A stretch of 63,532 bases of DNA from Hyphomicrobiaceae bacterium (GCA_031365465.1 JANLYD010000003.1:1-63532), one strand, 5' to 3'; numbered from the stretch's first letter, positions 4,274-58,407 are shown. A program made the numbers and translations. The notes: a model not told the origin generated them from the letters alone.

Positions 4274-4378
4274 TCTCATTATCTTCTTGTGCTCGTTCCC
4301 GGCGAAACAGCGCGTGGCCGTTCGTTCAGCGACGGTGGGTCAACACTGAGTTACTTCCAGCGAGACCGGACCTTCACA

Positions 4379-27935: not shown

Positions 27936-28088
27936 GATATTCCTCCGGAATGGTGCCGTTTCGACCGTTCCGTCGCAATTTACGTGCCCGTGAGCGAAGC
28001 CGACGCGGCTGCCGCCGTGCGAACTTCGGCAAGAGTTGTTTTTCAGCGGCGTATTGCAAGCGTATGCAATCAGCAACTGATGGTGCGC

Positions 28089-35856: not shown

Positions 35857-37707
35857 ATGTTGCGTCCCAAAATTCTCGGCATCAATTTCGTCTATCATCA
35901 GCCTTCGGCCTGTGTGGTGATCGACGGGGTCGTCGCTTGTGCTGTCGAGGAAGAGCGGCTCAATCGGGTCAAGGGCGGCAAGCCGACGCATGTCGACCAC
36001 ACTCTCGTGCTGCCATTCGGCGCGATCGATCGAACGCTGGCCGCGGCTGGTATCGCGTTTCGCGACATCGACTTGATCGCAACGAGCTTCAGCACGGAAC
36101 GGCGACGCCTCCACGCGCCGGAGCTGACCAAGCACCAGCCGATCCTACAGGGCAATTTCGAGACCGATGCCGGCAATCGTGCGTTCAATCAACTGGTGAC
36201 CCTTGCCCCAGAAGTCTTGGCGGCGCGCTACTCGGTGACATCGGCCTTCGTCACCGAGCGGTTCCGCTGGGTGCCGCATCATCTCGCTCACATCGCAAGC
36301 GCGTTCTACCCATCGGCCTTTGACAGCGCCGCCGCCATGGTTATCGACGGGATAGGCGAATACGAGACAGCGACGCTTGCGGACTGCGACGGGGCGGGCA
36401 TTCGCATTCTCGAAGAGACGTACTATCCGAACTCGCTCGGTTTCGTCTGGGAATTGTTGACTAGTTTTCTTGGTTTTGAGGGCAATCACGACGAGTCGAA
36501 GATTATGGGGCTTGCTGCATATGGCAATCCGGACCGGTTCCGCGATGCATTGCGCCGGCTGGTCACCGTCGGCGCCGACGGCCGCTTCGTAACACACCTT
36601 GACGGTACGGCGCTGACGGACAATTTCTCATCGCTCGAGACGGCGCTCGGGGTTCGCCGCCGCCTGCCTTACGAGCCGTTGGCTTGGCAAGGCCAGAACC
36701 GCAATCACGCCAACCTCGCGGCGGCGCTACAGGAGATTACGAGTGAAGTGTTCATACGCCAGGCTGAAACGCTCCGCCTGAAAACCGGTCGACGCCAACT
36801 TGTACTCGCTGGCGGGGTTTGCCTCAACTGCGTGGCGAACGGCGCCATCGCTGAGCATTGCGGCTTCGATGACATCTACGTGCAGCCGGCGACCGGTGAT
36901 GCCGGCACATGCGTCGGAGCGGCACTGCATGTCCTGAGAAGCGAGGCCGGCACCCCTTCGGCCATGAAGCCGCTCGCCATGCCCACGCCTTTCGTCGGAC
37001 CCGCCTTCAGCGATGACGAAATACGTATGGCGCTCGAGAAGTTCCGCTTGGACTACGAAGTACTCGACGACCCTGCCGATTACGCGGCTGAGTTTCTTGC
37101 CAAAGACAAGATCATCGGCTGGTTTCAGGGCGCTATGGAGTTCGGTCCCCGCGCGCTCGGAAACCGGAGCCTGCTCGCAAATCCGACCACACTCGGCATT
37201 CGCCACACGCTCAATCTCAAGGTCAAGCACCGGGAGGAGTTCCGGCCTTTCTGCCCGACCATTCTCGCTGAGGATGCATCCGAATGGTTCGATCATGCGC
37301 GGCCGCTGACGAAAGCGAGCCGGTGGATGTTGATGACACACCAAGTCAAGCACGCTAAGCGGTCGCTTATCCCTGATGTGTTGCACATGGACGGCAGCTC
37401 GCGCGTGCAAGTGCTGCAACGCGACGACAACCCGCTGTTTTACGCACTGATCGAAAATTTCAAGCGCCGGACCGGCGTACCGATTGTGCTGAATACCTCA
37501 TTCAATGATCAGGAACCGATCGTCTGCACGCCAGAAGACGCCTGCAAGTGCTATTTGAAGACACGCTTTGATGCGATGATCCTCGGGTCCTATCTTGTTG
37601 TTGGGCCCAAGCCATGGGAGCGGGAGCCGCGTCTCAGCTTTTTTGAAATGGAGGCGCGAAACTTCGACAGCTTCGGTTCTGCGTCGACGCGGAGGACAAG
37701 GTCATGA
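35857..37707 (+). CDS. NodU/CmcH-family carbamoyltransferase
   Basis: N-terminus KILGINFVYHQPSACVVIDGVVACAVEEERLNRVK, HHLAH metal motif, and the full family length of about 616 aa. Start at MLRPKILGI (ATG 35857). Confidence 0.8.
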   Translation: MLRPKILGINFVYHQPSACVVIDGVVACAVEEERLNRVKGGKPTHVDHTLVLPFGAIDRTLAAAGIAFRDIDLIATSFSTERRRLHAPELTKHQPILQGNFETDAGNRAFNQLVTLAPEVLAARYSVTSAFVTERFRWVPHHLAHIASAFYPSAFDSAAAMVIDGIGEYETATLADCDGAGIRILEETYYPNSLGFVWELLTSFLGFEGNHDESKIMGLAAYGNPDRFRDALRRLVTVGADGRFVTHLDGTALTDNFSSLETALGVRRRLPYEPLAWQGQNRNHANLAAALQEITSEVFIRQAETLRLKTGRRQLVLAGGVCLNCVANGAIAEHCGFDDIYVQPATGDAGTCVGAALHVLRSEAGTPSAMKPLAMPTPFVGPAFSDDEIRMALEKFRLDYEVLDDPADYAAEFLAKDKIIGWFQGAMEFGPRALGNRSLLANPTTLGIRHTLNLKVKHREEFRPFCPTILAEDASEWFDHARPLTKASRWMLMTHQVKHAKRSLIPDVLHMDGSSRVQVLQRDDNPLFYALIENFKRRTGVPIVLNTSFNDQEPIVCTPEDACKCYLKTRFDAMILGSYLVVGPKPWEREPRLSFFEMEARNFDSFGSASTRRTRS

Positions 37708-40700
37708 ACAAGACGTCGGTCGGCCGCGATGACGAGCTGCGACGGGAATATCACGTCCTCAAAGACGACATGCCGCACGAGTTCCGCCTCATCGTCAGCA
37801 AACTGGAGAACGATAAGGTCAGCCGTGGAATGCTGTATGGCAATGCGATCGAAGGCCTCGGCGCGATGACCTACGCGATTGCGATTGCGGTCGCGGCGGC
37901 ACATTCTGACGAAAAGGGCCGTGAGCGGAGGCTACTGCTGTGGAACAAGCTTAATGAGCCGAAACACAGGGCACTGGTGGAGAATCTCGGCAGCGATCAG
38001 CATTACATAAGATTGTGCGGCAAGCCCCTAAGCGACCTGTTCGAGGAAGTCGACCGCCAAAAATCCTTCAGCGGCATTCTCAACGATATCCTTCTGACAG
38101 CGAAAAGCATCGAGAGCGGCGTCCGATCCAGCGGCGAGGGCGATATATATGCCGAACTCGAGAACCTAAAACGAGAGTCACCTGATGGCACCTACGAGCA
38201 GCGTAGCCGGTTTGGCAACTCGCTCTATCATTTGGTGTGTGAGCTGTTCTGGTACTGGCCGCGCTATTCACTCGGATTTCTGGACGCTAACTCAAACCCG
38301 CCACGGGTCGAATTCGACACCGACGAACTTGGTGATCTGGTGTTGACCGAGACGCAGCGCGACAAATTCAAGTTCGACGTCGTTACGCGCGACAACAGAT
38401 GGATAAAACCGATGGTCGAACGGGGTCGGGTCCACATCGGCCCCGACCACGTCGAGGCGATCGACCCCGACCGCGTCCGCACGGTCTTTCTCGCCGACCA
38501 GATAGAGCGCAAGATCTATATGATCAGCCCGTTCCTCTTCAATTACGTCACGTCGGCGAAGGGTGCGCAAAATGTGAAATCCAAGTACCTGTTCCTTGAA
38601 CCGAATTGGTCACTCGCGAGTGGCGGGTTGATGTGGAAGACGTTTAACGATCTGGAGAAAGACGAGCATCGCGGACCGACACTGCCTGGTGGCGAAATCG
38701 GGCCAAGTCTCGAGCAAAGTCAAGACGGGCGCTGGCAGTCCTTCGTGAAGGGTTTACTGGAGCGTCCCTGCCAAGTCGCGCTTGAGACAGCCGGTGAGGC
38801 ATCGCAAGAGCGCGCCGTCTTCGACCACCTCAGGAACCAGTTGAGCAAAGTCCGCTTCGAACCAACGACCGGGAACGCCTACAAAGTTGCGGAGAAATCG
38901 GCGAAACCCCGCCTGTTCTACAAAACGGGCGCGTCGATCTATGTCGAAGTTGTCGAGGACGTCCCGAACGGCCGCACGGCTGTAGCCAAGGTTCTGCAGC
39001 CGAGCGTCATGGGTATTACGCATGTCGAACTTGATCGCTTCCCACGTGAAGTGACTTTTTTGAAAGCGTATTTCAGCTCACCGCAGATCGGCGCTAATGA
39101 TACGCGTTTGATCGGCAGCGGTATTGTCCAGTTTCTGGCCGAAGGGAAGACTACGGCGGGGGACGACGGCACCGCTGGGGCCAATTCGGACCGGCAAGGC
39201 GAAACAGCGGAGCGCGCGCGCAAGAGTACTGGAAAGGCGCGATCCGTCGACTTCTCCAATTGCTCGTTCTACGTCCGAGAGAAAATTGAAGAGAACCTGC
39301 GGGATGTCATCAACGAGGTCGAGCGTGAGCAACGCCGTGGTGTGCGCGGCACGGTACCCCGATCTTTGCCTGCCAACCGCGAGTCGATTGCCGTTGGCCG
39401 GCGCATTCTTCGCGCTCTCTATATCATCGAGCGTGCGGCGACGACACTCGAGCGCATCTATTCGGAGCCGAAGTCGCCAGAACTAGAGGCGCGGCTCGGC
39501 GACAACAAGGACGCACACTTTATTCATCGCGACATCCGGCCAGAAGTGATTCTTCACGCCGGTGGCGGGCTGATAAAGATCTGCGATTTTTCCGCAGCTT
39601 ATTTTCCCGGCCGCGACACTCATCGCGCACTCACAGACGACGAGGTAGGCCATGGCGCAGGGACTGCGCTGTTACTAGATAGTTTCGGCATGTCGTCCGA
39701 TTATTGCGCGCCAGAAGTTTACGTGCGTCCGGACGCCTACAGCCCGACTGCCGATGTGTTTTCGCTCGGCATCATTCTCAACGAATTGCTGTTCGGCAAA
39801 CGCAAGAACGTACAGCGTCACATTTGGGAGTGGCGAAAGACAGCCGGGGAGGAGCGCGATTGGAAGGACAAGCTATACGACGCGCCAGAGGGCGCCGAGC
39901 AAAGGGCCGACGAGCGCATCAAGTCCGCAGAGACAAGCGGCACACCCAGCCGATTCGATTTGCGCGAGCTTGTCGCGCGTTCGACGTGCCACCACACTCA
40001 ACGCTGGTCGATGTCGGAGTTTCGCGACAATGTCGCGGCGGCAAGTGTGATCGTCAGGGAGTTTTTGGCCGCCGAGACGAGGAAGGTAATCGCCGACGCG
40101 CGCAAAAGCGCAGCCCCCAAAGAACTGCAGGATGCGATAAGGTTCACCGCCGAGGCTTTCGGCTATGACGGGCGCACCCTCAAACCGACATCAATGGTCC
40201 GCTGCGCCGCCTGCTATGGCTGTAAGGAATTCACCTACGACAGCGACGAGCCGGAATTCTATGCGTGCCACAAAGACGGCATGTCGAAGGCCATCGCCGA
40301 CCTGAAGCAGGTGACAGACGGCGTCAACTCGGGGGCACAGCCCTCCGCCGACGCTACGGATCAGCTGGTTCGGCCTTTGACGCACGAGCAGGCGAATATT
40401 GTTCTTGGAGCGCTCGAGGCCGGCCTTACCATCTGTTCTGGCGTCGTCGATCGTGTTTCCGACGAGTTGGAGATTTTGGTAGGACGCCCAATCCCCGGCG
40501 GCGAGCGCGCCGAAGGCGAGTTCGATAAGCTTCGACCGCACCGCAGCTTCAACAGCCTCAGCGAAAAAATCTTCGTAGCTGCCGCTTACCCCGGGGGGGT
40601 GACAGTTGCTGATCCGGTCCAAGTTACCAAGCCGGCCGCCAGGGATACGCAGTTCGCTGAGGAACTGTTAATGCTGATAGGACGAGCCAGCGGCGTACAA

Positions 40701-40745
40701 ACGGGCGAGATTGCCAAGCTGCTCGATGTGCCGCGGCCAGACTAG
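37704..40745 (+). CDS. 1013-aa multidomain protein with a central degenerate Hanks-type protein-kinase-like core
   Basis: ATGA overlap with the carbamoyltransferase stop. AVAKVL lysine (38988-38990), HRDIRPEVIL (HRD at 39525-39533), DFS (39595-39603), APE (39708-39716), FSLGIILNELLFG. The N-terminal 400 aa or so and the C-terminal 250 aa or so have no motif I recognise, apart from a Cys cluster CAACYGCKEF...FYACH and a terminal HTH-like GVQTGEIAKLLDV. Confidence 0.7.
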   Translation: MNKTSVGRDDELRREYHVLKDDMPHEFRLIVSKLENDKVSRGMLYGNAIEGLGAMTYAIAIAVAAAHSDEKGRERRLLLWNKLNEPKHRALVENLGSDQHYIRLCGKPLSDLFEEVDRQKSFSGILNDILLTAKSIESGVRSSGEGDIYAELENLKRESPDGTYEQRSRFGNSLYHLVCELFWYWPRYSLGFLDANSNPPRVEFDTDELGDLVLTETQRDKFKFDVVTRDNRWIKPMVERGRVHIGPDHVEAIDPDRVRTVFLADQIERKIYMISPFLFNYVTSAKGAQNVKSKYLFLEPNWSLASGGLMWKTFNDLEKDEHRGPTLPGGEIGPSLEQSQDGRWQSFVKGLLERPCQVALETAGEASQERAVFDHLRNQLSKVRFEPTTGNAYKVAEKSAKPRLFYKTGASIYVEVVEDVPNGRTAVAKVLQPSVMGITHVELDRFPREVTFLKAYFSSPQIGANDTRLIGSGIVQFLAEGKTTAGDDGTAGANSDRQGETAERARKSTGKARSVDFSNCSFYVREKIEENLRDVINEVEREQRRGVRGTVPRSLPANRESIAVGRRILRALYIIERAATTLERIYSEPKSPELEARLGDNKDAHFIHRDIRPEVILHAGGGLIKICDFSAAYFPGRDTHRALTDDEVGHGAGTALLLDSFGMSSDYCAPEVYVRPDAYSPTADVFSLGIILNELLFGKRKNVQRHIWEWRKTAGEERDWKDKLYDAPEGAEQRADERIKSAETSGTPSRFDLRELVARSTCHHTQRWSMSEFRDNVAAASVIVREFLAAETRKVIADARKSAAPKELQDAIRFTAEAFGYDGRTLKPTSMVRCAACYGCKEFTYDSDEPEFYACHKDGMSKAIADLKQVTDGVNSGAQPSADATDQLVRPLTHEQANIVLGALEAGLTICSGVVDRVSDELEILVGRPIPGGERAEGEFDKLRPHRSFNSLSEKIFVAAAYPGGVTVADPVQVTKPAARDTQFAEELLMLIGRASGVQTGEIAKLLDVPRPD

Positions 40746-40749
40746 TCGA

Positions 40750-43002
40750 ATGTTGTATGGTGATAATGGAACGGGACGTGCTTCGATGAGTGGGCAAAAA
40801 AATAAAGCAATGGACGAGTTGAAGCGGCATGCGCGCACCATGAAGGGAGTGCAGGCGACGCTACTCGCCCAGGCAGAGGGAGATAAACTCAAGGTCTCCG
40901 ACTACGAGATAGACAGGGACAACGCGCAGGATGCCATCATGCCGCGCATCTTTGCGCTCGATTCCGCGCTTATTCCCTTTTCGGCCGTCACGCCCATCAG
41001 TCGGCGCCTGGAGAAAGATGCCAAGTTCGTCGATTTAGCGGCGAGCCTGCGCCGCGACCGCGACATACGCGACCTACTCTCGGTGAGCTCGAGCGACACC
41101 GGCCGGCGAATACTCGAACTCAGTCGTGACCGCCTCGATGAGACGCTCACTTTCATCGAGAACGCAGTCAAAGGCAATTCTGCCGTGCCGGCACCCTATG
41201 GCACGTTTGTCGATTTTGACATGCTTGTTTGGGCCCTCGGCTACGTTCTCGATCTGAAAACCACGCTCTCGCAGTCCAACACTGCCAAATCTCAATCGAC
41301 CGACAGTGATGAGACAATACGAATCGAGACACTGGTCAAGGAGGGACTTGCGGCACTTATTCAGCGCGGTCAGGAAGGCCTTGCATCCTCCGAATTGCGA
41401 CACGGCTGGTACGCCAGCCTGGAGACAATGGAGTCGCTGTTCGAGCAGCGCGGAACCTTTAAAGGTACTGCCGGCAAGGATAGAATCAGCAACCGCAAAG
41501 ATAATTTGTCAAAAGCGTTTGTGCGGCATCAACAGAAACTCGATCCGCTACTGCTCGAGATCGTCGATAGTCCGGCGTTCGTCGAGTCGATATTCGTGGC
41601 GACGCGCGCGATCTGTGTGTTCGTGTCGATAGCGAAGGAAGTCGCGGAGGAGGCAGAACGCGAGTCGGGCGTCGCGAGCGAGACCTCGCTGTCCGCCTAC
41701 TTCACAGACCTCGAAACCGAGGTGTTCCGTCAAGACTCCTTCGGTCAATTCTGCCTGACACAGCTCAAGAAATATACGCTGGACCGCCAGGGGCGGCCGC
41801 TGCCGCTCGATCACTACGACCCGTTCATCCACTTGACCGGCATCCTCGCGTTCGCACTGGCTGAGGGCTATTTCTCGCCAACTGATGACGATGGCAAGCC
41901 AATGACCGAGAGCCTGCGGCCGAAGTTTGTGGAAATCGGCTTTGCTAACCGGACGGCGATCATCGACGCAATCGTGGATACCTTTGAGGGCCCGCTCATC
42001 CAGGCGCTCGGCGACCAGTTGAACCCGATAAACATCGAGGAAAACCGCTTTGTTGCGACGGCCGAACTTCACCGCCTGTTCGACGGTGACGGCAACCTCA
42101 TGCTGCTCGACAACGTGCAAAAGAAGTCCGGGATCGAGCGAGATCCCAACGACAAAAGCCCAACCGCTTACCTCGACCGCCGCAATCACTCGTTCACTTA
42201 CCTCGTGGCGCTTCCCATCGCACTCAAGGGTCTCGCGCAAATGGTGCGTGAAGAACTTATGAGCCGCCTGCTGGAAACGCCAAGTACGGAGTGGAAAACC
42301 GCCGCGGCCAAGTTGCCCAACTGGGTCGGGCGCGTCGAGACCATGTGCGGCAAGCTCGTCAAGACACTGTACGATGTCAATATCAACAAGGAGGGGGACA
42401 AACGCATTGGGGTATGGAAGGGCAAGCCGTCCTGGAGCGTGACCGCCGCAGTTGTCGATGCCCTCAGTGTGTGGATGGGGGTGCTGACGTGCCGGGTCGC
42501 GATTGAACTGGCATCCGGCGAGGCCGAGGAAACGCTCACGGAGGGGATCGACTTTCCGAGCAGCGATATTGGTGTCGTCAAGGACTTCTTTTCTCTGCTC
42601 ACGAAATATACATCGCCCCCACCCGCACCGCCTGTGCAGACGCAGCCGGAAAGCCCTGCGGTCGAGCCGAGCCTGCTGCAATGGCTGAACTCGATCAAAA
42701 CGGTGGCCGATGTCGGAATCTTTTATAATCCAAGCTCGAATGCCGGTTTTACGACGACCCTCGGTCCGGAGCAGGTGCTAAAGACGGTCAAGCTCATAAA
42801 GTTCATTTCCGACCGCATGAAGGACGAGACGACATACGCAGAAGTCGAAGAGTACGTTTGCACAAAGTTGATCAAGGACCTGCGGAAAGAAGTCAGGGCG
42901 TCGGGCAAGATGACTGTCGAATCCGTGTTCCAGACACTGGAAAACCGACTTAAAGAAAAATATCCGACCGCATTCCGGAACCAGACGAAGGGCCGGGATT
43001 AA
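40750..43002 (+). CDS. 750-aa hypothetical protein, no recognisable catalytic motif
   Basis: ATG 40750 lies 4 nt after the upstream stop, and the long ORF shows island-type composition. Mostly helical-looking sequence with a short Pro-rich linker (SPPPAPPVQTQPESP). Confidence 0.6.
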   Translation: MLYGDNGTGRASMSGQKNKAMDELKRHARTMKGVQATLLAQAEGDKLKVSDYEIDRDNAQDAIMPRIFALDSALIPFSAVTPISRRLEKDAKFVDLAASLRRDRDIRDLLSVSSSDTGRRILELSRDRLDETLTFIENAVKGNSAVPAPYGTFVDFDMLVWALGYVLDLKTTLSQSNTAKSQSTDSDETIRIETLVKEGLAALIQRGQEGLASSELRHGWYASLETMESLFEQRGTFKGTAGKDRISNRKDNLSKAFVRHQQKLDPLLLEIVDSPAFVESIFVATRAICVFVSIAKEVAEEAERESGVASETSLSAYFTDLETEVFRQDSFGQFCLTQLKKYTLDRQGRPLPLDHYDPFIHLTGILAFALAEGYFSPTDDDGKPMTESLRPKFVEIGFANRTAIIDAIVDTFEGPLIQALGDQLNPINIEENRFVATAELHRLFDGDGNLMLLDNVQKKSGIERDPNDKSPTAYLDRRNHSFTYLVALPIALKGLAQMVREELMSRLLETPSTEWKTAAAKLPNWVGRVETMCGKLVKTLYDVNINKEGDKRIGVWKGKPSWSVTAAVVDALSVWMGVLTCRVAIELASGEAEETLTEGIDFPSSDIGVVKDFFSLLTKYTSPPPAPPVQTQPESPAVEPSLLQWLNSIKTVADVGIFYNPSSNAGFTTTLGPEQVLKTVKLIKFISDRMKDETTYAEVEEYVCTKLIKDLRKEVRASGKMTVESVFQTLENRLKEKYPTAFRNQTKGRD

Positions 43003-43085
43003 AAAGAGTCAAACGGCATCGGATTAATTGAGCGCATCTTTCGAAATCGGGCTCGCCGGGCGCGATAGCAGGCATAGGTTGAGCA

Positions 43086-44159
43086 ATGAGCAAGGACGCC
43101 CAGCGGGCACCTCAAATCCCGATCGTCAACATCGTGAGCTACTCCTACAAGGGCGGCTCTGGACGGTCGACGGCAAGCGTGAACATCGCCTTTTCGCTAG
43201 CAAAGCAGGGCAAGCTGGTCGTCTGCCTCGACATGGATGTCGGCGCTGCCGGGCTGCACATGATCATCAGCGACTGGGATGAGAAAACAAAGACGCACGT
43301 CGCAGCAAACCGGGACGAGATCGGGCATCAGCTCTTCTTCAATGCGTCCAACGAACCTTCAATCAATCAGCTCGCGCCAGCGCTCATCGACATCGACAAG
43401 GTCACCGGAGTGGCTCATGTCGGAATCGGCGAGAACCCGGGCCGTCTGCTGTTTGCGTTCAGCTCGACCAAGGATAGGGCGTTGAAGGACCTCAACAACG
43501 ATAGCGACGGTGCCCGGGCCTTCAAGCAGAAATATCTGCGCCTGCAGCAACTCCTGGCAAGGGAAGTCGGCGGCACCGCCGACCGCGAAGTGTATTTCAT
43601 CGTCGACGCGCCCAACGGGATAACCAATGTGAGCCTGCCTCTACTGAAATGCGCCGACCTTATCCTGATGTTCTATCGTTATAGCTTGCAACACGTGCAA
43701 GGCACTGTCGAAGCTGGCGACAAATTGATCTTCTATCTGCGCGACGAGTATGAAAAGCGGCCGTACATGCGGCTCCTGCTGGTCGGCTCATGCGTGCCCG
43801 AGCGGATCATCGAGAATTTGCGGCAGCATGCCGATAGCCTTGAGCCGTACGAGCGCGAAATGCTCGATAAATTCAATAGTACCCAGGCAAATCTCGAGGC
43901 CTTCGCGGACGATTATCCGCTGCAGGTCGAGCTGTTACCGATGCATCAGCGCATCGGCGAGGACGATCTTTTGAAGATCTTGGAGCAGCCAATCACAAAC
44001 GCCAAAGGTGTGCGCAATGCCGTTCTCGGTTATCCCGAGATCGGTTGGCCTGCGTCGAGTTCGGCCGGCACCATGGACCGCATTACCGCAATCGCAAACC
44101 TGCTTGGCCAGCATGGCCCCGAGATCGCACGCGAGAAGAAGCGCCGCTATGGCGGGTGA
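43086..44159 (+). CDS. ParA/MinD-like P-loop ATPase with variant Walker A (KGGSGRST)
   Basis: Deviant Walker A in SYSYKGGSGRSTASVN, with Arg codon 43164-43166 where the P-loop Lys is expected. CLDMDV switch region and Walker-B-like YFIVDAPNG. 357 aa. Confidence 0.7.
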   Translation: MSKDAQRAPQIPIVNIVSYSYKGGSGRSTASVNIAFSLAKQGKLVVCLDMDVGAAGLHMIISDWDEKTKTHVAANRDEIGHQLFFNASNEPSINQLAPALIDIDKVTGVAHVGIGENPGRLLFAFSSTKDRALKDLNNDSDGARAFKQKYLRLQQLLAREVGGTADREVYFIVDAPNGITNVSLPLLKCADLILMFYRYSLQHVQGTVEAGDKLIFYLRDEYEKRPYMRLLLVGSCVPERIIENLRQHADSLEPYEREMLDKFNSTQANLEAFADDYPLQVELLPMHQRIGEDDLLKILEQPITNAKGVRNAVLGYPEIGWPASSSAGTMDRITAIANLLGQHGPEIAREKKRRYGG

Positions 44160-44193
44160 AGCGTAACATCGATAATGATCAGAGTTTTTGAAT

Positions 44194-45480
44194 ATGGCTG
44201 ATGACATCTTCTTGTCGTACCGACGGTCACAGGAACGCAAGGTCGAGGAACTGGCCAATTTCCTCAAGGCTGTCGGCTACAGAGTCTTCATGGATATCAA
44301 AGGTCTGGAGGTCGGAGTCGACTGGTGGAAGCAGTTGCAAGACAAGCTCCGCGAAGTGAAGCTAGTGATAGTTTGCGTATCCAGCGACGCCTTAAGCGAT
44401 GGCTCGGTTGTCTTAAGAGAATTAGAGCTGGCGATCGGTCAAAACAAGTTGGTTCCCCTTTATATCGAGAATGTAAAGTGGAACGAAAACCTCAAACATC
44501 TGCATTCCGTGAGTATTGCGCAATGGGACGGTGACCCTCATCACCGGCAGGTTACCGAGCTCGTTAAGCAGCTGAGAGGAAAAAAATGCTTCGGGAGTAA
44601 TTCCGCTTCTGAAGAGATGGTGCGTGAGAAACTAAAGGAAATCCGCACGTTTGTTGAGACGTACAAATCTGCCTGGAATCCCAACGGTGATGTCGCCACG
44701 ATTCAACCCCTCGAGTTTCAGTCAATCATCGCACCTCCAACACGGCGGATTGAAAAGCTGGAATTCATCCAAGGCGCCGGGAATACCGAGGCCGGTGCAC
44801 TCGATCAGGAACTTCCGCGTCGCGCCGTGCGACTTCGCGCCTTTGAGATCGGCGTGACAACCGTGACGGTGGGACAATGGGCAGAATACGTTGCGTCCGG
44901 CCAGAGCGGGAGAGCAATGCCGGCTGACGATTACCCCGGCACGACAGTCTTGTGGTCCAAAGCTTTCGAGTATCCGATGGTCCGCGTTTCCTGGCACGAG
45001 GCACGCGAGTATACGGCCTGGTTGAGCACAATCACTGGAAGCAGATATCGCCTTCCAAGCGAGAGCGAATGGGAATGTGCGGCGCGGGCTGGACACGGGG
45101 GGCGCATCTTTGGATGGGGTGACGATATCGTCCCGGAGCACGCTATCTACAACTGGTCGAAATCCTACCAGGGTGGGCGGACGAAACGGCCCCCGCCCAG
45201 TGGGCCGCGGCCAGTGCAGCGCGGAACCGCCAACGATTTCGACCTCCATGATCTGCACGGCAACGTCAAAGAGTGGGTGGCGGACGTCCTCAGGCCCTAT
45301 GACCCCGAGCATTGCGACGGAAGCGTCGTCGGCGATCCGGGGATGCCGGAAGGCCGTGCCGTTGTCCGCGGTGGTTCGTGGCGCAGCGACCCCGCCAAAT
45401 TGCGATCGGCTTGGCGCGAACCTTATCCCGCAGACTGCGGCGACGACGAGATTGGCTTTCGCATCGTGCGCGAGCTATAG
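44194..45480 (+). CDS. TIR domain fused to a formylglycine-generating-enzyme (FGE/SUMF1)-like domain
   Basis: N-terminal TIR pattern: DIFLSYRRSQE ... GYRVFMD ... VKLVIVCVSSDAL ... VLRELELAI, with a candidate catalytic Glu at about 44419-44421. C-terminal FGE-sulfatase pattern: RVSWHEAREYTAWLS, YRLPSESEWECAARAG, GNVKEWVAD, VVRGGSW, GFRIVREL. Confidence 0.8.
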   Translation: MADDIFLSYRRSQERKVEELANFLKAVGYRVFMDIKGLEVGVDWWKQLQDKLREVKLVIVCVSSDALSDGSVVLRELELAIGQNKLVPLYIENVKWNENLKHLHSVSIAQWDGDPHHRQVTELVKQLRGKKCFGSNSASEEMVREKLKEIRTFVETYKSAWNPNGDVATIQPLEFQSIIAPPTRRIEKLEFIQGAGNTEAGALDQELPRRAVRLRAFEIGVTTVTVGQWAEYVASGQSGRAMPADDYPGTTVLWSKAFEYPMVRVSWHEAREYTAWLSTITGSRYRLPSESEWECAARAGHGGRIFGWGDDIVPEHAIYNWSKSYQGGRTKRPPPSGPRPVQRGTANDFDLHDLHGNVKEWVADVLRPYDPEHCDGSVVGDPGMPEGRAVVRGGSWRSDPAKLRSAWREPYPADCGDDEIGFRIVREL

Positions 45481-45521: not shown

Positions 45522-46463
45522 GTGACACGTGTTTCTGGCGCCGCGCCGACTAAAGGCGAGGGCAAGATCGATAAGACATTCTACCGCATTTCGACCGGCA
45601 TTTCCGTTGCACGCGCGGTGCTTGTCGTTTCGCTTTACCTTGCGATCGGCGTCGCGGCGTTGGTCACCGACAGCAATGTCGGATACGCGCTGGCTGCCTT
45701 GCCCCTGGCGTTCGCACAGCAGTTTTTTTTCAATGCCCTACACTATTGTACGCACTCGACGTTCGTTCGGTCTCGGGCGATCAACAACGTGTTGGGTATT
45801 GCCTTCGGCTGCCTGTCGATCATGAACTTCGCGCTCTATAAGCCGTATCACCTCCAGCATCACCGCCATCTGGGAACTGATCAGGATCCGGAACCGCATC
45901 CGCGTTCATTTGCGACACGAGCGCAATATCTCCGCGAGATGCTCATGCCCCACTTCTTTATCGACAACTGGATGAGCAGCTTAAAAACCCTAACGCGCTC
46001 TCTCGGACTCGCTTGGTTTGGCTCGCACGAGCGATACCTCCTTCATGTCTCGCGGGTGTCGGTCAATTTCAACAGCTTTTTGTTGTTCGTCTGGGTTTCA
46101 GCGCTGTTGGGGTTGACCTTGATGTATGGGCGGCAGGTTTTTTGGCTCTATTGGGTTCCACTCGGGCTGAGCTACGTGCTCGCCAATCTGGTCATACTGC
46201 CCGAGCATTATCGCACCGATCCGGTCCTCGGACGCAATCTGGAGAACAGCCGTACTGTTTCAGCGGGCGCGTTCGCTAGGTTTTTCATCGTGAACATGAA
46301 TTTTCATGCCGAGCATCATCTTTACCCAGGCGTTCCATTTCACAATCTTTCGCAATTGAACAGGCGGATCGGCAGCGGGGTAAAGCATCGCGACCAGTCT
46401 TTCTTTGCATTCCATCGCGACGTTTTCAGGTCGCTGCCATGGAAAAAGCATCGCGAAGCTTGA
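45522..46463 (+). CDS. membrane fatty-acid desaturase-family protein
   Basis: GTG 45522 lies 6 nt after GGAG. Three His boxes (HYCTH, HLQHH, HAEHH) and TM segments. The upstream part of the track ORF overlaps the TIR-FGE gene and is discarded. Confidence 0.75.
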   Translation: MTRVSGAAPTKGEGKIDKTFYRISTGISVARAVLVVSLYLAIGVAALVTDSNVGYALAALPLAFAQQFFFNALHYCTHSTFVRSRAINNVLGIAFGCLSIMNFALYKPYHLQHHRHLGTDQDPEPHPRSFATRAQYLREMLMPHFFIDNWMSSLKTLTRSLGLAWFGSHERYLLHVSRVSVNFNSFLLFVWVSALLGLTLMYGRQVFWLYWVPLGLSYVLANLVILPEHYRTDPVLGRNLENSRTVSAGAFARFFIVNMNFHAEHHLYPGVPFHNLSQLNRRIGSGVKHRDQSFFAFHRDVFRSLPWKKHREA

Positions 46464-46478
46464 ACGCCGATCTTTAAA

Positions 46479-47213
46479 TCAAACCAACGTCCGGCAATGC
46501 GCGAGGAGTTCGGCGTTCGCGACAGCCGCCCCGGGCTCGGGCCTAGCCCGAAATACAATACTTGTAGGCGTTCCGCCGAGTACCACGACTTCGTCGGCGA
46601 GGCGCACTGCATCCTCGACGTCATGGGTGACAAAGACCACGCTTCCCACTTTGCCCTCCGTATAAAGATCTCGCACGAGCGTGCCGAGATGCCGGCGGTT
46701 TCCGACGGCAAGCGCGCCGAACGGTTCGTCGAGCAGCAGGACATGGGGGTCCTGGGCCAAGGTGCGAGCAAGGGCCACGCGCTGGCGCATGCCACCCGAC
46801 AGTTGGTCCGGACGCGCACGTCCATTCGTCTCGAGCTTGACGGTTCGGAGTAGCTGGTTCGCACGGGCAAGCCGGTCGGATTTGGACAAACCGGAACGCG
46901 CGAGGCCGAGGGTGACATTGCCGATGACCGACTTCCATGCAAGCAGGTCGTAGGACTGAGACATGTAGCCGATGCCCGAAACGGGCCCGTCGATCGGCCG
47001 ACCGTCAAACAAGACCTGGCCCTGGTCGGGATGTACAAAGCCAGCGAACATCCGCAGCAAGGTTGATTTTCCGCAACCGGAGACGCCGAGAATGGCAATG
47101 AAGTGTCGTTTGGGGATAACAAGATTCAGATCGCTAAATAGGGCGCGAGCGCTGCCACCGCTCGTAACCTGCTTGTGGATCCCGACGAGTTGCAAGCCCC
47201 CCCGCGCACTCAT
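46479..47213 (-). CDS. ABC transporter ATP-binding protein (nitrate/sulfonate/taurine type)
   Basis: [38 protein letters not shown]. Confidence 0.85.
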   Translation of the reverse strand: MSARGGLQLVGIHKQVTSGGSARALFSDLNLVIPKRHFIAILGVSGCGKSTLLRMFAGFVHPDQGQVLFDGRPIDGPVSGIGYMSQSYDLLAWKSVIGNVTLGLARSGLSKSDRLARANQLLRTVKLETNGRARPDQLSGGMRQRVALARTLAQDPHVLLLDEPFGALAVGNRRHLGTLVRDLYTEGKVGSVVFVTHDVEDAVRLADEVVVLGGTPTSIVFRARPEPGAAVANAELLAHCRTLV

Positions 47214-48001
47214 GATGCCTGCCGAACCTCATTCATCCACGGGAACAGGCGCGGGTACAGGCGGCGAAGCACATAATCGATCACGAGGCCGACCACGGCG
47301 ATCAACAGGATGATCGCCAGAACTCGCGGTATCTCCAGGAACCGTTGCGCCGTGATCAGCGACTGGCCAAGGCCGTGCGTTGCCCCGACAATTTCCGCCA
47401 CCAGCAGGTAGGACCATGCCCAGCCGATTGCGACACGCGATCCATCGTAAATCTGTGGGCTCGAGTACGGTAGCACGGCGTGAACCAGCGTCTCGAACCT
47501 GCCGAGGCGTAACGACTGGCAGAGTTCGATTGTGCTCGTTGGCAGGCGACTTGCCGCGTCCGCGATCAGCACGATCAATTGTGGTAACGTGCCGAACACA
47601 ATGACCCCGATCTGGCTAGTGTTGCCGAGGCCGAGCCAGAGAATCATCAATGGCACCATCGCGGGAACAGGAACGTAACGGACGAAGTCATTGAGCGGCT
47701 GGAGCAAGCGCCGAGTTGGACCGTGGAGCGCCAAAGCTACACCGAGCGGCAGCGCGATCAGGAACGAAATTATGAAACCAGCAAATATGCGGGCGGTGCT
47801 GACTGCGAGGTCCAAAAGCAGCGAACCGGACGCCAATCCAGCGACCAGCGACTGGAAGACGGACTGGGGGGACGGTAGGAAGACTTCAGGCACCGATCCC
47901 CATGTTGCCGCGACAAACCAGACCGTCAAGACGATCGCAAAAGGCAAGAGGCTGGCGAGGCCGGACTCGCCCGCCTTGATTGGTCGCTGGCTCTGAATCA
48001 T
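47210..48001 (-). CDS. ABC transporter permease (SsuC/TauC-like)
   Basis: 6-TM BPD-type permease. Start and stop overlap the neighbouring genes. Confidence 0.8.
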   Translation of the reverse strand: MIQSQRPIKAGESGLASLLPFAIVLTVWFVAATWGSVPEVFLPSPQSVFQSLVAGLASGSLLLDLAVSTARIFAGFIISFLIALPLGVALALHGPTRRLLQPLNDFVRYVPVPAMVPLMILWLGLGNTSQIGVIVFGTLPQLIVLIADAASRLPTSTIELCQSLRLGRFETLVHAVLPYSSPQIYDGSRVAIGWAWSYLLVAEIVGATHGLGQSLITAQRFLEIPRVLAIILLIAVVGLVIDYVLRRLYPRLFPWMNEVRQAS

Positions 48002-48969
48002 CGAACGAAGTCGCTGGTGGTTGCGGATGACAAGTCGGGCATCGTTTTAATAAGCTTGGCTTCGCGCCAAATTTTCAATGCTAGCGCCAGCGTGCTTGCC
48101 GCTTGGCCCTGTGGAGCCAGGTATTGCCGATTGGCGTCGGCGCCAAGAAAACGGACCCCGCCAACCATGTCGCCTACCGCTTCGGGGCTCAGAGAGAAGT
48201 ATTTGCCGACGATGGCATTCGCCTCGGCCGGGCTGGCTTGCCAGAATTCGATTGCTTTGGTTAGCCCGTTGACGAGGCTGCGAACGTCCTCCGGACGGCG
48301 CTTCATTACAGCGGGATGGGCGATAAGGGCATCGACCATTATACTCGGATGATCCTTGCTCGAAACCAGCAGCCTGCCCTTGCCCTGCTCCTTTGCGCGC
48401 GACAACCAGGGCTCCCACGTCACTGCGGCATCAAGTTTACCGCTGACGAAAGCGGCGCCAGCTTTGTCCGCGTCGAGATTAATGTGCGTGTATTGCGAGG
48501 GCGCAATATTGGCCGTCGACATCAAATAGAGGAGAAAGAAATGATTGGGGTTTCCGGTTTGCGCGGCGACCGTCTTGCCGCGCAAGTCGGCGAGACTCTT
48601 GATCCCGTCACGCGCAATTATCCCGTCGGCGCCAGCAGATTCGTCAAACAGATACACGACCTTGCCCGGCACGTTCCGAGAAGCGGCGATCGCGAATGTG
48701 TCAAGCGTGGTGCAATAGCCGTCGAGGTCACCGCGTAACATCGCGCTGTTGAAAACGTTCGAATCGTCACTACGCCGGAGTTCGACGTCGAGGCCGGAGA
48801 AGAAACCCTTGTCCCGACCAATGTAGAGGGCGCCATAACCGATCCATGTCGGCACCCCGATACGAAACTTTCGCGGCGTCTGCGCGACCGCGCTCAGAGG
48901 CCGCGCTGCCACCGACATAGCGGCGGCCACTAAACTCGCGCCGCGCACCCACTCCCGACGTGTTATCAT
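47998..48969 (-). CDS. periplasmic substrate-binding protein (NMT1/SsuA-like) with Tat-type leader
   Basis: The leader MITRREWVRGASLVAAAMSVAARPLSA carries a twin-Arg. The overall pattern is that of nitrate/sulfonate/bicarbonate-family binding proteins. Confidence 0.75.
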   Translation of the reverse strand: MITRREWVRGASLVAAAMSVAARPLSAVAQTPRKFRIGVPTWIGYGALYIGRDKGFFSGLDVELRRSDDSNVFNSAMLRGDLDGYCTTLDTFAIAASRNVPGKVVYLFDESAGADGIIARDGIKSLADLRGKTVAAQTGNPNHFFLLYLMSTANIAPSQYTHINLDADKAGAAFVSGKLDAAVTWEPWLSRAKEQGKGRLLVSSKDHPSIMVDALIAHPAVMKRRPEDVRSLVNGLTKAIEFWQASPAEANAIVGKYFSLSPEAVGDMVGGVRFLGADANRQYLAPQGQAASTLALALKIWREAKLIKTMPDLSSATTSDFVR

Positions 48970-49288
48970 TGCAATCGCACTCTCAAAATTGTGACTCCGT
49001 CATTCACCATAGCCCCCGACCGGGCTGCCGTCTCGCAAAAGGTTGTCTGCGGAGCAATGCATTTTTCACCGTGTCATATTTTCCGGAAAGGAAGCCGGGC
49101 CCAGGATCGCGCCCACGCCTTCTTGCCGGAGGTCGCGATGAGTATCAGTGTGTTGTCGGACGTTTCGGCGGCCGCGATACCTGGAGACAGACGCTCGTTG
49201 CGGCGGGGGCCATCTCGACGTGACCTCGCAATTCCGTCACGATGCTGATTACAATTATTCAGTCCACACATTAGTGACGGAACTTAAA

Positions 49289-50533
49289 ATGACTGCTCGC
49301 CTTGCGGCCGCTGGGCCGAAACGCATTCTGGCGCTTGATGGCGGTGGCACGCGCGGTATCGTTACCCTCGCGCTTCTCGCTGAAATCGAAGAGACGTTGC
49401 GTGCAAAGTTCCAAAACCGAAACCTTGTGCTTGCTGACTATTTCGACCTGATCGGTGGCACGTCAGTTGGCGCGATGATCGCCACATTATTGGCACTCGG
49501 CAGAGACGTTGCCTACGTGCGACAGCGCTTCGAAGAGTGGGCGCCACGCATTTTTTCGAAACGCCGCCTCAATTTCGGGATCATCACGTCGCTTTACGAC
49601 GCTCGCATTTTGCGCGGCCTCGTGCAGCAGGAAGTGTTCGATTGGACGATGCGATCGCCTAACCTCAAAACCGGGTTATGTATCGTCACGAAGCGCATCG
49701 ACACAGGCAGCGTATGGCCAGTCATCAACAATCCACATGATCGTTACTTCGAGGGGCGTGCCGCCGTTGGCGACACCCCGGAACGCATCGGAAATGGCGA
49801 TTATCTGCTGCTTGACCTGATACGCGCCTCGACCGCCGCGCCACGCTACTTCTCGCCTGAATCCATCCGTATCTTCAAAGGTGTCTCAACTTTTGTTGAC
49901 CGCGAACGGGGACTGTTCGTCGACGGCGCGATCTCGCCGCACAACAATCCTGCGCTGCAGCTCTTTCTCATGGCTGGGATTAGTGGTTACAATCTTGGTG
50001 GTGCAGATTTGACCAAGGGCGAGAAGGCTCTGCCTTGGTCGCTGGGCGCGGATCAGCTGATGATCGTTTCGGTCGGCACAGGCTCGTATGAATTTCAAGT
50101 CGGGGAAAGTGGGTCTGCGGCTTACGACGCCGTGCAGGCACTGCAGGGCATGGTTTCGGACGGCCAGGAACTTGCGTTGACGCTCTTGCAATGGATGAGC
50201 ACGCCGACCGCATCAGCGCCGACGTCACATTGGCCCATCGATCGTGTCATCGAGAATTTGTCGGGCGATCAGTTGGGTCATTCGTCCGCACCAAAATTGC
50301 CGTTGCTGACGTTTCACCGATACGATGTTCGACTCGAGCGAGAGTGGTTGCTGAAAATGCTGGGTCAAAACGTACCAGCCGACCTGCTGGACGAGATGCG
50401 CGACTTCACAAATGCGAAGCATTTGAAGGCGCTTGCAAACCTGGGGCGATTGGCCGGCAAGCAACAGGTTCATGCTCACCACTTCCCGGATGTGTTCGGG
50501 ACCGCGCCCCAGGTGGCGGAGGCTGCTGAATGA
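49289..50533 (+). CDS. patatin-like phospholipase
   Basis: Oxyanion motif GGGTRG (49340-49357), nucleophile GTSVG (49457-49471) and catalytic Asp motif VDGAI. Start at MTARLAAAGPKRILALDGGG (ATG 49289). Confidence 0.85.
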   Translation: MTARLAAAGPKRILALDGGGTRGIVTLALLAEIEETLRAKFQNRNLVLADYFDLIGGTSVGAMIATLLALGRDVAYVRQRFEEWAPRIFSKRRLNFGIITSLYDARILRGLVQQEVFDWTMRSPNLKTGLCIVTKRIDTGSVWPVINNPHDRYFEGRAAVGDTPERIGNGDYLLLDLIRASTAAPRYFSPESIRIFKGVSTFVDRERGLFVDGAISPHNNPALQLFLMAGISGYNLGGADLTKGEKALPWSLGADQLMIVSVGTGSYEFQVGESGSAAYDAVQALQGMVSDGQELALTLLQWMSTPTASAPTSHWPIDRVIENLSGDQLGHSSAPKLPLLTFHRYDVRLEREWLLKMLGQNVPADLLDEMRDFTNAKHLKALANLGRLAGKQQVHAHHFPDVFGTAPQVAEAAE

Positions 50534-51168
50534 AAATAGGCGTTACCGGACATCGGCCAAAGCGGATTGATATCGGTCTGGATCGCATCGAGGCGCGCGT
50601 AACGGAGGCGCTGCACTTATTGCTCGGCGCGTCTCACGTCGCGGAGGCCGGTGCTAAACCGATAGAGGCAATTTCTGCGCTGGCAGAAGGGGCGGATCGT
50701 GTGTTTGCCAAAGCCGCGCTAGCAGTCGGATGCGAGTTGCATGCTGTGTTGCCGTTCGCATCGCCGGAATACGAAACGACTTTCTCGGATGCATCCGAGC
50801 TGCCTGCTTATTTTGCGCTGTTGGCGCAGGCCAAGACTGTAACGGAGTTGGCGGGCACACTGGCGGATGCAGATGTTGCATACGAGGTGGCTGGCCGACT
50901 TATCGCGGATCAATCGGATGTTCTGTTTTGCGTTTGGGACGGACAGCCGGCGGCCGGACGCGGAGGCACGCCAGAGATCATTCAATATGCGCTCAGTAAC
51001 GGCAGATCCGTCGTCTGGATCGATGCATCGCGTGACAGATCGCCCTTGCTGCTGGAGGCATCAATCACGGATGCGTTCACGCTGGTCGACATCGACGCTG
51101 TTGCGCACAGTGCCGCCACGCTAACGCAACATCTGCTCGAGAGGGTCTTTGGCCAGGCGCGCACGTAG
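50530..51168 (+). CDS. stand-alone SLOG/DprA-LOG-like Rossmann protein (hypothetical)
   Basis: ATGA overlap with the patatin stop. N-terminal strand KIGVTGHRP, then ALAEGADRVFAKAAL and VWDGQPAAGRGGTPEII. This resembles the GxxGxD...A and DG...GGT motifs of SLOG-superfamily proteins. Assignment is from motif reading only. Confidence 0.5.
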   Translation: MKIGVTGHRPKRIDIGLDRIEARVTEALHLLLGASHVAEAGAKPIEAISALAEGADRVFAKAALAVGCELHAVLPFASPEYETTFSDASELPAYFALLAQAKTVTELAGTLADADVAYEVAGRLIADQSDVLFCVWDGQPAAGRGGTPEIIQYALSNGRSVVWIDASRDRSPLLLEASITDAFTLVDIDAVAHSAATLTQHLLERVFGQART

Positions 51169-51318: not shown

Positions 51319-51347
51319 GGCGGTAGGGGGTGGGATTCGAACCCCAC
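51319..51347 (-). pseudogene. degenerate duplicate of the tRNA-Ser 3-prime end (T-arm plus acceptor strand)
   Basis: The + strand reads GGCGGTAGGGGGTGGGATTCGAACCCCAC, against GGCGGAGGGGGTGGGATTCGAACCCAC at 51420-51446. It is identical except for two 1-nt insertions, has the same orientation and is offset by 100 bp. Confidence 0.7.
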
Positions 51348-51418: not shown

Positions 51419-51508
51419 TGGCGGAGGGGGTGGGATTCGAACCCACGGTGGCCTTTCAACCACGCTAGTTTTCAAGACTAGAGCCATAAACCACTCGGCC
51501 ACCCCTCC
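51419..51508 (-). tRNA. tRNA-Ser (anticodon UGA)
   Basis: 90-nt cloverleaf: acceptor GGAGGGG/CCCCTCC, 3-bp D stem, anticodon stem CTAGT/ACTAG with loop CTTGAAA, long variable arm (GTGG...CCAC), T arm GTGGG-TTCGAAT-CCCAC, discriminator G and encoded CCA. Confidence 0.95.
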
Positions 51509-58004: not shown

Positions 58005-58060
58005 GGAGAGCCTCGCTCGGGTGATGCCGGGGCGGGGCGGGTCGGTCGCGTGTCTCGAAC

Positions 58061-58372: not shown

Positions 58373-58407
58373 GGATTGAAACAGTGGCGCCACATCAGAA
58401 GCGAAGC

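Follow-up and report, generated by a model that had tools for sequence, protein, structure and literature searches.

Among the described systems closest to the locus considered here are the nucleoside triphosphate-dependent conflict systems of multicellular bacteria (VMAP ternary systems and relatives) of Kaur et al., in which Ser/Thr kinases, often catalytically disrupted, are paired with MinD/ParA-like domains (PMC7159879, PMC8195603). In these systems FGS domains are always C-terminal to swappable effectors, e.g., TIR or caspase domains, FHA domains serve as phospho-readers, and effector choice diversifies between relatives (PMC7159879, PMC8195603). FGE-like domains with N-terminal effectors have been described as invader sensors (PMC7159879, PMC8195603, PMC13581612), which bears out what a first reading of our sequence had said of conflict-system surveys. 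That reading, made from the DNA alone, concerned a 63,532-nucleotide stretch from a Hyphomicrobiaceae bacterium (GCA_031365465.1 JANLYD010000003.1:1-63532), here called the window, and proposed an undescribed five-gene conflict system at 35857-45480. A computational follow-up shows that the cluster consists of a conserved four-gene core and a variable effector gene. That the window holds a member of an undescribed, horizontally scattered conflict system, of abortive-infection or programmed-death type, is in our view an evenly balanced proposition.

A Conserved Four-Gene Core

The five open reading frames (ORFs) were compared with Pfam, NCBIfam, and PADLOC profiles, and each of the domain readings made from the sequence was upheld. 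Their positions, with lengths in amino acids (aa), are as follows:

35857-37707, plus strand: CT, a carbamoyltransferase of the NodU/CmcH/TobZ type, 616 aa (Pfam Carbam_trans_N and Carbam_trans_C)
37704-40745, plus strand: KIN, a Hanks-kinase-like protein, 1013 aa (Pkinase match)
40750-43002, plus strand: ORPH, an all-helical orphan, 750 aa (no match in Pfam, NCBIfam, or PADLOC)
43086-44159, plus strand: the ParA-like protein, a ParA/MinD-like P-loop protein, 357 aa (variant Walker A; matches to NF047398 and PDC-M28B)
44194-45480, plus strand: the TIR-FGE effector, 428 aa (TIR_2 and FGE-sulfatase)

The stop codon of CT and the start codon of KIN share an ATGA overlap (37704-37707), and the following gaps measure 4 nucleotides (nt) between KIN and ORPH, 83 nt between ORPH and the ParA-like gene, and 34 nt between the latter and TIR-FGE, all exactly as first read. 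Contigs retrieved through homologues of the ParA-like protein, KIN, or ORPH gave 15 distinct loci, i.e., the window and 14 others (designated by L numbers). CT, KIN, ORPH, and the ParA-like gene stand in one order and on one strand in every locus with enough sequence: the full core is present in the window, L001, L007, L008, L010, L011, L013-L018, and L020, and ORPH and the ParA-like gene are present in the truncated loci L005, L006, and L019. Tight same-strand packing is seen again in all related loci, with core intergenic distances of -32 to +83 nt, mostly overlaps or gaps of a few bases. The host G+C content ranges from 0.42 to 0.70; one locus belongs to a Sedimenticola metagenome-assembled genome, and further family members are annotated from metagenome-assembled genomes of Alphaproteobacteria. 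CT, KIN, ORPH, and the ParA-like gene are a conserved, very rare, tightly packed four-gene unit found in unrelated bacteria. The gene neighborhood is kept well beyond close relatives, with a core shared by 15 loci at 21-68% identity. The constant unit, however, has four genes and not five: TIR-FGE is a variable accessory, of which five loci have none.

Divergence is strongly unequal among the core proteins. CT is the most conserved (58-68% identity to the window copy), the ParA-like protein follows (37-53%), and KIN (23-37%) and ORPH (21-35%) diverge fastest. KIN and ORPH are fused as one polypeptide in two lineages (P0013, 1752 aa; P0017, 1566 aa), which is Rosetta-stone evidence for a joint function; ORPH is an obligate partner of KIN. 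A search for related loci with an alignment of the ParA-like protein returned one genome, two metagenome, and no viral entries. The same alignment found no homologue among IMG/VR viral contigs, and no ORPH homologue was found among PLSDB plasmids. When the upstream flank (25-36 kb) was searched as DNA, the only matches were to Pst genes of Azospirillum and Ralstonia, at approximately 75-80%.

The cluster does lie in DNA poorer in G+C than its flanks, as the sequence-only reading stated, with per-kb values of 0.577 ± 0.015 at 37-51 kb vs. 0.630 ± 0.023 in the flanks. The drop is real but moderate, and it does not single out the five genes. The low-G+C tract also takes in a desaturase-like gene, an ABC importer, and a patatin gene until approximately 51.2 kb, its right end adjoins tRNA-Ser (51419-51508), and CT (0.597) is intermediate between tract and flanks. 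Scans for promoters and terminators gave the same result as shuffled sequence.

One related locus is broken. In L007 (MOXH01000117.1, 666-5421), a frameshift divides CT into two parts (666-2006 and 1916-2482), and the KIN gene is distributed over at least three ORFs; ORPH and the ParA-like gene are intact. These breaks could represent a decaying copy or assembly errors.

The Effector Gene and Its Variants

The fifth gene of the window encodes a TIR domain (TIR_2, E 1e-18; 68.4 bits vs. 28) followed by an FGE-sulfatase domain (E 1e-44; 153.5 bits). F6, S8, Y9, D34, and E76 are invariant across six cluster-linked TIR domains, so that the catalytic Glu pointed out in the first reading is found in all of them, and by its fold and this conserved Glu the window domain appears to be of the NADase type. 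The C-terminus of the FGE domain was read from the sequence as RGGSWRSDPAKLRSAWRE, in which the RGGSW... segment has no Cys pair of the kind present in human FGE. TIR-FGE has the fold of a catalytic formylglycine-generating enzyme and, as read from the sequence, not its Cys pair. Because this pair appears to be missing, the domain is more likely a binding module than a formylglycine-generating enzyme. A search of the window for a template/variable-type repeat for the FGE gene, of the kind found in diversity-generating retroelements, found none.

The fifth gene is a swappable death effector, which occurs in the following forms:

Window and L006: TIR-FGE, after the ParA-like gene
L017: TIR-FGE, with its start overlapping the stop of the ParA-like gene
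L005: TIR-FGE, after the ParA-like gene and inserted radical-SAM genes and PvlArgDC
L001: caspase-FGE, with an intact His/Cys dyad and a homologous FGE domain (39% identity), approximately 5 kb upstream of CT and not after the ParA-like gene, followed by a desaturase-like gene
L014 and L015: zinc-ribbon-FHA-TIR, 316-319 aa, with its start abutting or overlapping the stop of the ParA-like gene

The FHA domain of the L014 and L015 proteins matches the full Pfam profile with E values of 0.012 and 0.014, and the best hits of a profile search of this region against the PDB are all FHA proteins (Rv0020c, ArnA).

The form of the effector co-varies with the state of KIN. In the FHA-TIR loci the Lys, Asp, Asn, and DFx-Asp of the kinase are canonical, and the kinase is degenerate in three loci with FGE-fused effectors (the window, L001, and L017). 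An RNxxxH motif is found in KIN in exactly the five loci without an effector gene and in L011; it is absent or deleted in each of the five in which a TIR or caspase gene is adjacent.

The Kinase-Like Protein and Its Helical Partner

KIN belongs to the kinase fold (Pfam Pkinase, E 4e-13; 49.7 bits vs. a cutoff of 31.7), with a match to residues 604-700 only. The protein is composed of an uncharacterized helical and beta N-terminal region (residues 1 to approximately 395), a Hanks-type core (approximately 400-720), and a C-terminal region with a Cys cluster, in which C834 and C837 are conserved and C855 is conserved in most members. Its only close homologue in a word-indexed set of 5.8 billion proteins is P0003 (37% identity). 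The beta3 Lys (K429) and the alphaC Glu (E449) are invariant in all 12 aligned KIN sequences, and the HRD Asp (D610 in the window, with H608) is kept in all of them except L018 (HRN). KIN has a protein-kinase fold, because the APE motif and the DVFSxG motif of subdomain IX are kept in nearly all members.

Most members have a canonical HRDxKPENLL. The catalytic loop of the window KIN reads HRDIRPEV, in which Val replaces the catalytic Asn and Arg replaces Lys, and DFS stands in place of DFG, with the Asp (D628) present. The window, L001, and L017 share the form HRDIRP[EQ][VI], with loss of the catalytic-loop Asn. In L018, the effector region of which is unsequenced, both catalytic Asp residues (HRD and DFG) are lost. 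A catalytically competent Hanks kinase was defined by the beta3 Lys, alphaC Glu, HRD Asp, catalytic-loop Asn, and DFG Asp together, and the window KIN falls short of this by the missing Asn. As this residue is lost, KIN of the window's clade is, judging from the sequence, probably a pseudokinase.

The RNxxxH motif lies in the N-terminal region of KIN (residues approximately 150-175, predicted to be helical) in L008, L010, L011, L013, L016, and L020, i.e., in 6 of the 12 aligned sequences, whereas the window, L001, L007, L014, L015, L017, and L018 do not have it, through loss or deletion. This motif agrees with the Rx4-6H signature of HEPN domains. A HEPN fold in this region received no support from profile searches of Pfam and the PDB, and a four-sequence AlphaFold2 model of the KIN N-terminus (pLDDT 45) was unusable for a fold search.

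ORPH has no hit in the three profile collections. An exhaustive HMMER search of 1.84 billion proteins gave only 15 representatives at E ≤ 1e-3, including P0013 and P0017, and a word-indexed homology search returned only the query itself. The AlphaFold2 model of ORPH is all-helical (pLDDT 76, pTM 0.71). Foldseek found no match to this model at E ≤ 0.001 in PDB and BFVD (TM ≤ 0.28), and a profile search against PDB sequences found nothing. A class III/IV lanthipeptide synthetase, with its architecture of lyase, kinase, and LanC-like cyclase, was considered and rejected: the LanL model scores 14.8 bits vs. 650, there is no LanC hit, and the ORPH model shows no alpha-toroid match. A 377-aa antisense ORF lies inside ORPH (41548-42681, minus strand); the other overlapping antisense ORFs of the window suggest that it is a by-product of high G+C content.

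The ParA-Like Protein and the Carbamoyltransferase

The ParA-like protein has a variant Walker A motif, KGGSGRST, in which the signature Lys is kept and the P-loop Lys is replaced by Arg. A set of 5.8 billion proteins yielded 22 members of the family, and the sequence YSYKGGSGR[ST]T is invariant in all 22; the Arg-for-Lys P-loop looks like a selected variant rather than decay. A classical deviant Walker A ATPase has both Lys residues (KGGxxGK[ST]), and the protein does not belong to that class. The closest named family is NF047398, "KGGVGR-motif variant AAA ATPase" (E 4.7e-16), which shares the replacement of the P-loop Lys by Arg; the motif of our family differs in being KGGSGR, and its score (59.7 bits) is below the cutoff of 90. 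PADLOC PDC-M28B models match residues 12-67 (56 residues, E 4e-13) and 16-197 (E 2e-5), and no PDC-M28A hit was found among the proteins scanned. Models of ParA, MinD, MipZ, and CbiA-type P-loop proteins match the N-terminus only, over 40-60 residues in the case of ParA, MinD, and MipZ. The protein thus resembles ParA/MinD in its fold and signature Lys, whereas the cluster, unlike ParA/MinD partition systems, has no partition site or ParB-like partner.

The assignment of CT to the carbamoyltransferase family relies on both Pfam domains together with a metal motif of the Kae1-like type (HHxxH) and a YrdC-like motif (GPRALG). The two domains, Carbam_trans_N (E 7.5e-50) and Carbam_trans_C (E 1.5e-65), score 171 and 220 bits vs. 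gathering cutoffs of 24 and 27, and HHLAH (141), GGVCLN (319), GPRALG (430), and NTSFN (546) are present. Like the NodU/CmcH/TobZ O-carbamoyltransferases, CT is a full two-domain enzyme with intact motifs. Because these motifs are kept, CT is probably an active carbamoyl-adenylate-forming transferase, by analogy with TobZ and NodU. It is not a NodU (nodulation) equivalog (NCBIfam NF041651, 139 bits vs. a cutoff of 1000), and the cluster contains no other genes of the Nod-factor pathway.

Importer and Small-Molecule Enzymes

The five-gene boundary drawn in the first reading was too tight, since an ABC importer, a "desaturase," pyruvoyl decarboxylases, and radical-SAM enzymes travel with the core. 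Of these, the window has the following genes:

45531-46463, plus strand: membrane di-iron hydroxylase/desaturase-family protein (FA_desaturase, E 1.4e-32)
46479-48969, minus strand: SsuA/TauA-family ABC importer (ABC_tran, BPD_transp_1, NMT1)
46479-47213, minus strand: importer ATPase
47210-48001, minus strand: importer permease
47998-48969, minus strand: importer substrate-binding protein (SBP)

The start of the hydroxylase is uncertain, as the ORF opens at 45312 and homology begins at approximately 45531. Its top NCBIfam model is GntB (E 1.4e-19; 70.7 bits vs. a cutoff of 380), and GntB is the transmembrane L-arginine gamma-hydroxylase of guanitoxin biosynthesis (PMC10367076). In the window, L001, and L017, the hydroxylase gene comes after the gene of the FGE-fused effector, and the window and L001 copies share 51% identity. 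Of the importer components, the SBP scores 129 bits vs. 163.5 with SsuA_fam, the permease is TauC/SaoP-like, and the ATPase is TauB-like. The importer stands beside the core in nine loci (the window, L001, L008, L010, L013, L014, L016, L018, and L020) in three arrangements; in L008, L013, and L016 it is directly downstream of the ParA-like gene on the same strand. The importer proteins are 49-63% identical to the L001 copies.

The relatives have further enzymes. A pyruvoyl-dependent arginine decarboxylase (PvlArgDC) occurs in L001, L005-7, and L017-20, an AdoMet_dc-family decarboxylase in L014 and L015, a B12-radical-SAM enzyme in nine loci, a second radical-SAM enzyme with a 214-230 aa protein in five, and a deoxyhypusine-synthase-like enzyme in L010. 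The set would fit an arginine/polyamine-type chemistry with O-carbamoylation of an introduced hydroxyl group. The guanitoxin pathway is similar in that the adjacent membrane hydroxylase is closest to GntB and the relatives have arginine decarboxylases; it differs in that no other guanitoxin genes are present and the GntB score is far below the cutoff. No report was found in the literature of carbamoyltransferases or GntB-type enzymes beside TIR or caspase effectors.

Comparison with Named Defense Systems

No system model in PADLOC, Pfam, or NCBIfam describes this gene set, PADLOC giving only partial single-domain hits, and no published paper was found that describes the combination; the claim that the cluster matches no named defense system is thus sustained. 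The scan covered the cluster proteins and 15 neighboring proteins (30.3-51.2 kb). The TIR domain resembles Thoeris ThsB in having the conserved catalytic Glu, and the L015 TIR domain weakly matches the Pfam ThsB_TIR model (E 6e-4). In the window, Thoeris was rejected on a weak ThsB hit (PADLOC E 3e-4) and no ThsA among the scanned proteins, including no ThsA-type effector with SIR2/SLOG, Macro, or transmembrane domains. The cluster also differs from Thoeris and other TIR systems in that its TIR domain is fused to FGE or FHA and linked to a kinase and a ParA-like protein. Resemblance to CBASS extends to single domains only, and membership of the cluster in CBASS appears unlikely from the proteins scanned. 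VMAP ternary and STAND-FGS systems were rejected, as no vWA, MoxR (AAA_5), or STAND domain occurs in the five proteins.

KIN shares a Hanks-type core with the kinases of PD-T4-6, MADS (Mad6), Mokosh (MkoA), TerY-P, and Stk2. Its PADLOC matches are to mad6 (E 3.5e-12), MkoA, and PD-T4-6, and cover only approximately 100 residues of the C-lobe. KIN differs from these defense kinases in that the window copy has no catalytic-loop Asn, and the cluster contains no partner gene of any of these systems. With these partial matches and with 40.8 bits vs. 460 for the NCBIfam MAD6 model, membership in MADS, PD-T4-6, or Mokosh was rejected.

The favored reading of the cluster matches, by analogy, the logic of the conflict systems of Kaur et al. 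(PMC7159879, PMC8195603). Both have a kinase paired with a MinD/ParA-like protein, N-terminal effectors joined to FGS domains, FHA readers, and effector diversity. The cluster differs in having no vWA, MoxR, VMAP, STAND, or EAD/Death-like components, in the ABC importer and metabolic enzymes attached to it, and in the window's lack of a template repeat for the FGE gene. The NodU-type CT, ORPH, and the N- and C-terminal regions of KIN are unmentioned in the papers of Kaur et al., in each of which "carbamoyl" occurs 0 times. In our assessment the cluster belongs to none of the known system families. Annotated relatives exist neither for ORPH nor for the regions of KIN outside the kinase core, and for neither was a fold match found.

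A Proposed Mechanism and Its Alternatives

If the window does hold a conflict system, KIN and ORPH would form a fast-evolving sensor complex, and the ParA-like protein with its KGGSGR P-loop would link sensor and effector as a nucleotide-dependent dimerization switch or scaffold. When triggered, the TIR domain, with E76 as the catalytic residue, would degrade NAD+ and arrest the cell. Coupling may proceed by phosphorylation in the lineages with a canonical kinase, where the TIR domain carries a zinc ribbon and an FHA phospho-Thr reader, and by the binding of a protein or small molecule in the window's clade, where the kinase has no catalytic-loop Asn and the effector has a putative ligand-binding domain of the FGE fold. 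Lineages without a TIR or caspase gene may have their effector in KIN itself, through the RNxxxH (HEPN-like) motif of its N-terminus. CT would form a small-molecule arm together with the GntB-like hydroxylase, the SsuA-type importer, and, in relatives, the pyruvoyl decarboxylases or radical-SAM enzymes; its product is possibly an O-carbamoylated derivative of arginine with the role of a signal or cofactor. An extension of this scheme, which we regard as a long shot, is an immune or cell-death system with a dedicated small-molecule signal: CT, the hydroxylase, and the arginine decarboxylase and radical-SAM enzymes of the relatives would make the arginine-derived O-carbamoylated compound, the SsuA-type importer would bring it into neighboring cells, and the FGE domain or KIN-ORPH would read it, so that a communal alarm leads to NAD+ depletion.

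We infer a defense function for the cluster and consider a metabolic reading less probable. Several observations weigh against defense. Core synteny is partly built into the sampling, as all loci were found via homologues of core proteins. L008, L010, L013, L016, and L020 have no TIR or caspase gene within 10 kb, the FHA hits fall under the Pfam gathering score, and the HEPN assignment of the KIN N-terminus, which may hold, is a hypothesis on a six-residue motif alone. SBP-dependent importers, a strongly conserved CT, radical-SAM enzymes, and decarboxylases belong to the usual content of clusters for metabolism or biosynthesis and are unusual in immunity, and the decarboxylase and radical-SAM genes of the relatives are not present in the window by tblastn.

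These last points lead to the main rival explanation, somewhat doubtful in our judgment, in which the cluster serves a specialized metabolite or cofactor. Its product, an arginine- or polyamine-derived carbamoylated compound, would be made by CT, the GntB-like hydroxylase, and the decarboxylases, radical-SAM enzymes, and deoxyhypusine-synthase-like enzyme of the relatives, the importer would take up a precursor, KIN, ORPH, and the ParA-like protein would have scaffolding or regulatory roles, and the TIR and caspase genes would be neighbors or provide self-protection. That CT is both the most conserved and a universal gene (58-68% identity) speaks for such a cluster, as do the importer in nine loci, operonic in L008, L013, and L016, the B12-radical-SAM enzyme in nine, the second radical-SAM enzyme with its 214-230 aa companion in five, PvlArgDC or AdoMet_dc in ten, the deoxyhypusine-synthase-like enzyme in L010, and the similarity of the "desaturase" to the arginine hydroxylase GntB (role: PMC10367076). 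However, the enzymes besides CT differ by locus, the window has no decarboxylase or radical-SAM gene, no pathway enzyme reaches an NCBIfam equivalog cutoff, and the C-lobe motifs of KIN (APE, DVFSxG) are those of protein kinases and not of small-molecule kinases. A metabolite cluster also leaves unexplained the swap from TIR to caspase on one FGE domain, the FHA-TIR genes that abut or overlap the stop of the ParA-like gene, the fast divergence of KIN and ORPH, and the co-variation of the effector with the kinase state.

The same effector linkage bears on whether two unrelated modules, a housekeeping or regulatory four-gene unit and an independent stand-alone TIR-FGE, merely share an island. 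Effector-FGS proteins are stand-alone or otherwise linked in many bacteria (PMC7159879, PMC8195603), caspase-FGE lies well upstream of CT in L001, and five loci have no TIR or caspase gene. Yet a TIR gene directly follows the ParA-like gene in the window, L006, L014, L015, and L017, and in L005 follows it after inserted genes; the TIR-linked loci span identities of 37-53% in the ParA-like protein, the effector start abuts or overlaps the preceding stop in L014, L015, and L017, and the fused effector domain co-varies with the kinase state, which together make independence improbable. ParA/MinD proteins are positioning ATPases, and a kinase/ParA module for positioning or developmental signaling (polar localization, cell cycle), with no conflict role, could be imagined that answers an imported sulfonate- or urea-like nutrient. 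The conserved SsuA/TauA-type importer and the histidine kinase and Pst genes upstream in the window agree with this. We consider it very improbable: only 22 clusters of the ParA-like protein occur in 5.8 billion proteins, with a patchy distribution that speaks against housekeeping, the core is accompanied by TIR and caspase effectors, the surrounding island is low in G+C, and the upstream histidine kinase and Pst genes are not kept in other loci.

Genomic Surroundings

A patatin-like phospholipase of 461 aa is encoded at 49148-50533, 179 bp beyond the ABC importer, and matches CBASS phospholipase effector models (PADLOC E 3e-34; NCBIfam CBASS_lipase, 96 bits vs. 200). No CD-NTase cyclase was found among the scanned proteins of the cluster and its neighborhood. 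The patatin stop overlaps the start of a 212-aa ORF that has no family hit (pair: 49148-51168), and the two may be a separate two-gene defense module in the same island. The tRNA-Ser(tga) at the right end of the tract is on the minus strand, and a 21-nt copy of its 3' end, with two mismatches, lies 100 nt away (51326-51346) and looks like an att-like scar. An island bounded at both ends by tRNA-derived direct repeats was rejected, since this is the sole copy of the tRNA-Ser 3' end; no integrase was found, and no second copy at the left edge (approximately 35.7 kb).

Among the related loci, L001 lies near a BrnT toxin, a relaxase, and a Dam methylase, and L011 near a PD-T4-6-like TPR kinase and a MoxR-like AAA ATPase. 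A 1676-aa WD40 protein neighbors the cluster in L010. Large ATPases are encoded beside two effector-less clusters, an 838-aa DUF87/mad8-like protein in L008 (16848-19364, plus strand) and a 792-aa ABC/SMC-like protein in L020 (16471-18849, minus strand), the NACHT hits of which are faint, and might be extra components or neighboring defense genes.

The window contains several repeat features. Two genes contain nonapeptide arrays of the RTX type, with a period of 27 nt, at 2914-3647 and 26316-26806; the genes concerned in these regions are 788-2671 (minus), 4094-5698 (plus), and 26094-28076 (minus). One array gene matches RTX/serralysin-type calcium-binding repeat proteins, and a PrtD/HlyD type I secretion pair adjoins the other array. 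Outside the island, beyond the tRNA, a 908-aa protein (51684-54410, minus) has DUF2793, a GDSL lipase domain, and three repeats each of CHB_HEX_C_1 and Fn3_assoc, and its gene contains tandem repeats with a 246-nt period (52290-52938). Long imperfect inverted repeats at 18513-19775 and 57471-59128, 70-74% complementary and approximately 38-40 kb apart, fall where tblastn finds ABC-transporter ATPases; they probably represent paralogous ABC ATPase genes in opposite orientation.

Significance

To our knowledge, none of three components of the cluster has an assigned role in bacterial immunity: the kinase or pseudokinase together with its novel helical partner, the putative ParA-type switch with Arg in place of Lys, and the carbamoyltransferase. 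Should the cluster be a metabolite cluster, it would point to an unknown carbamoylated compound and to a protein set that includes two unannotated families. Should it be a defense or death system, these components would form a new architecture, and it would be the first in which TIR or caspase effectors are linked with SBP-dependent import and with small-molecule chemistry of the arginine type. Its effector variants form a natural series: a canonical kinase goes with FHA-TIR, a degenerate one with FGE-TIR or FGE-caspase, and an RNxxxH-containing KIN has no separate effector. This series would then amount to a set of built-in experiments on the wiring between a kinase module and death effectors.

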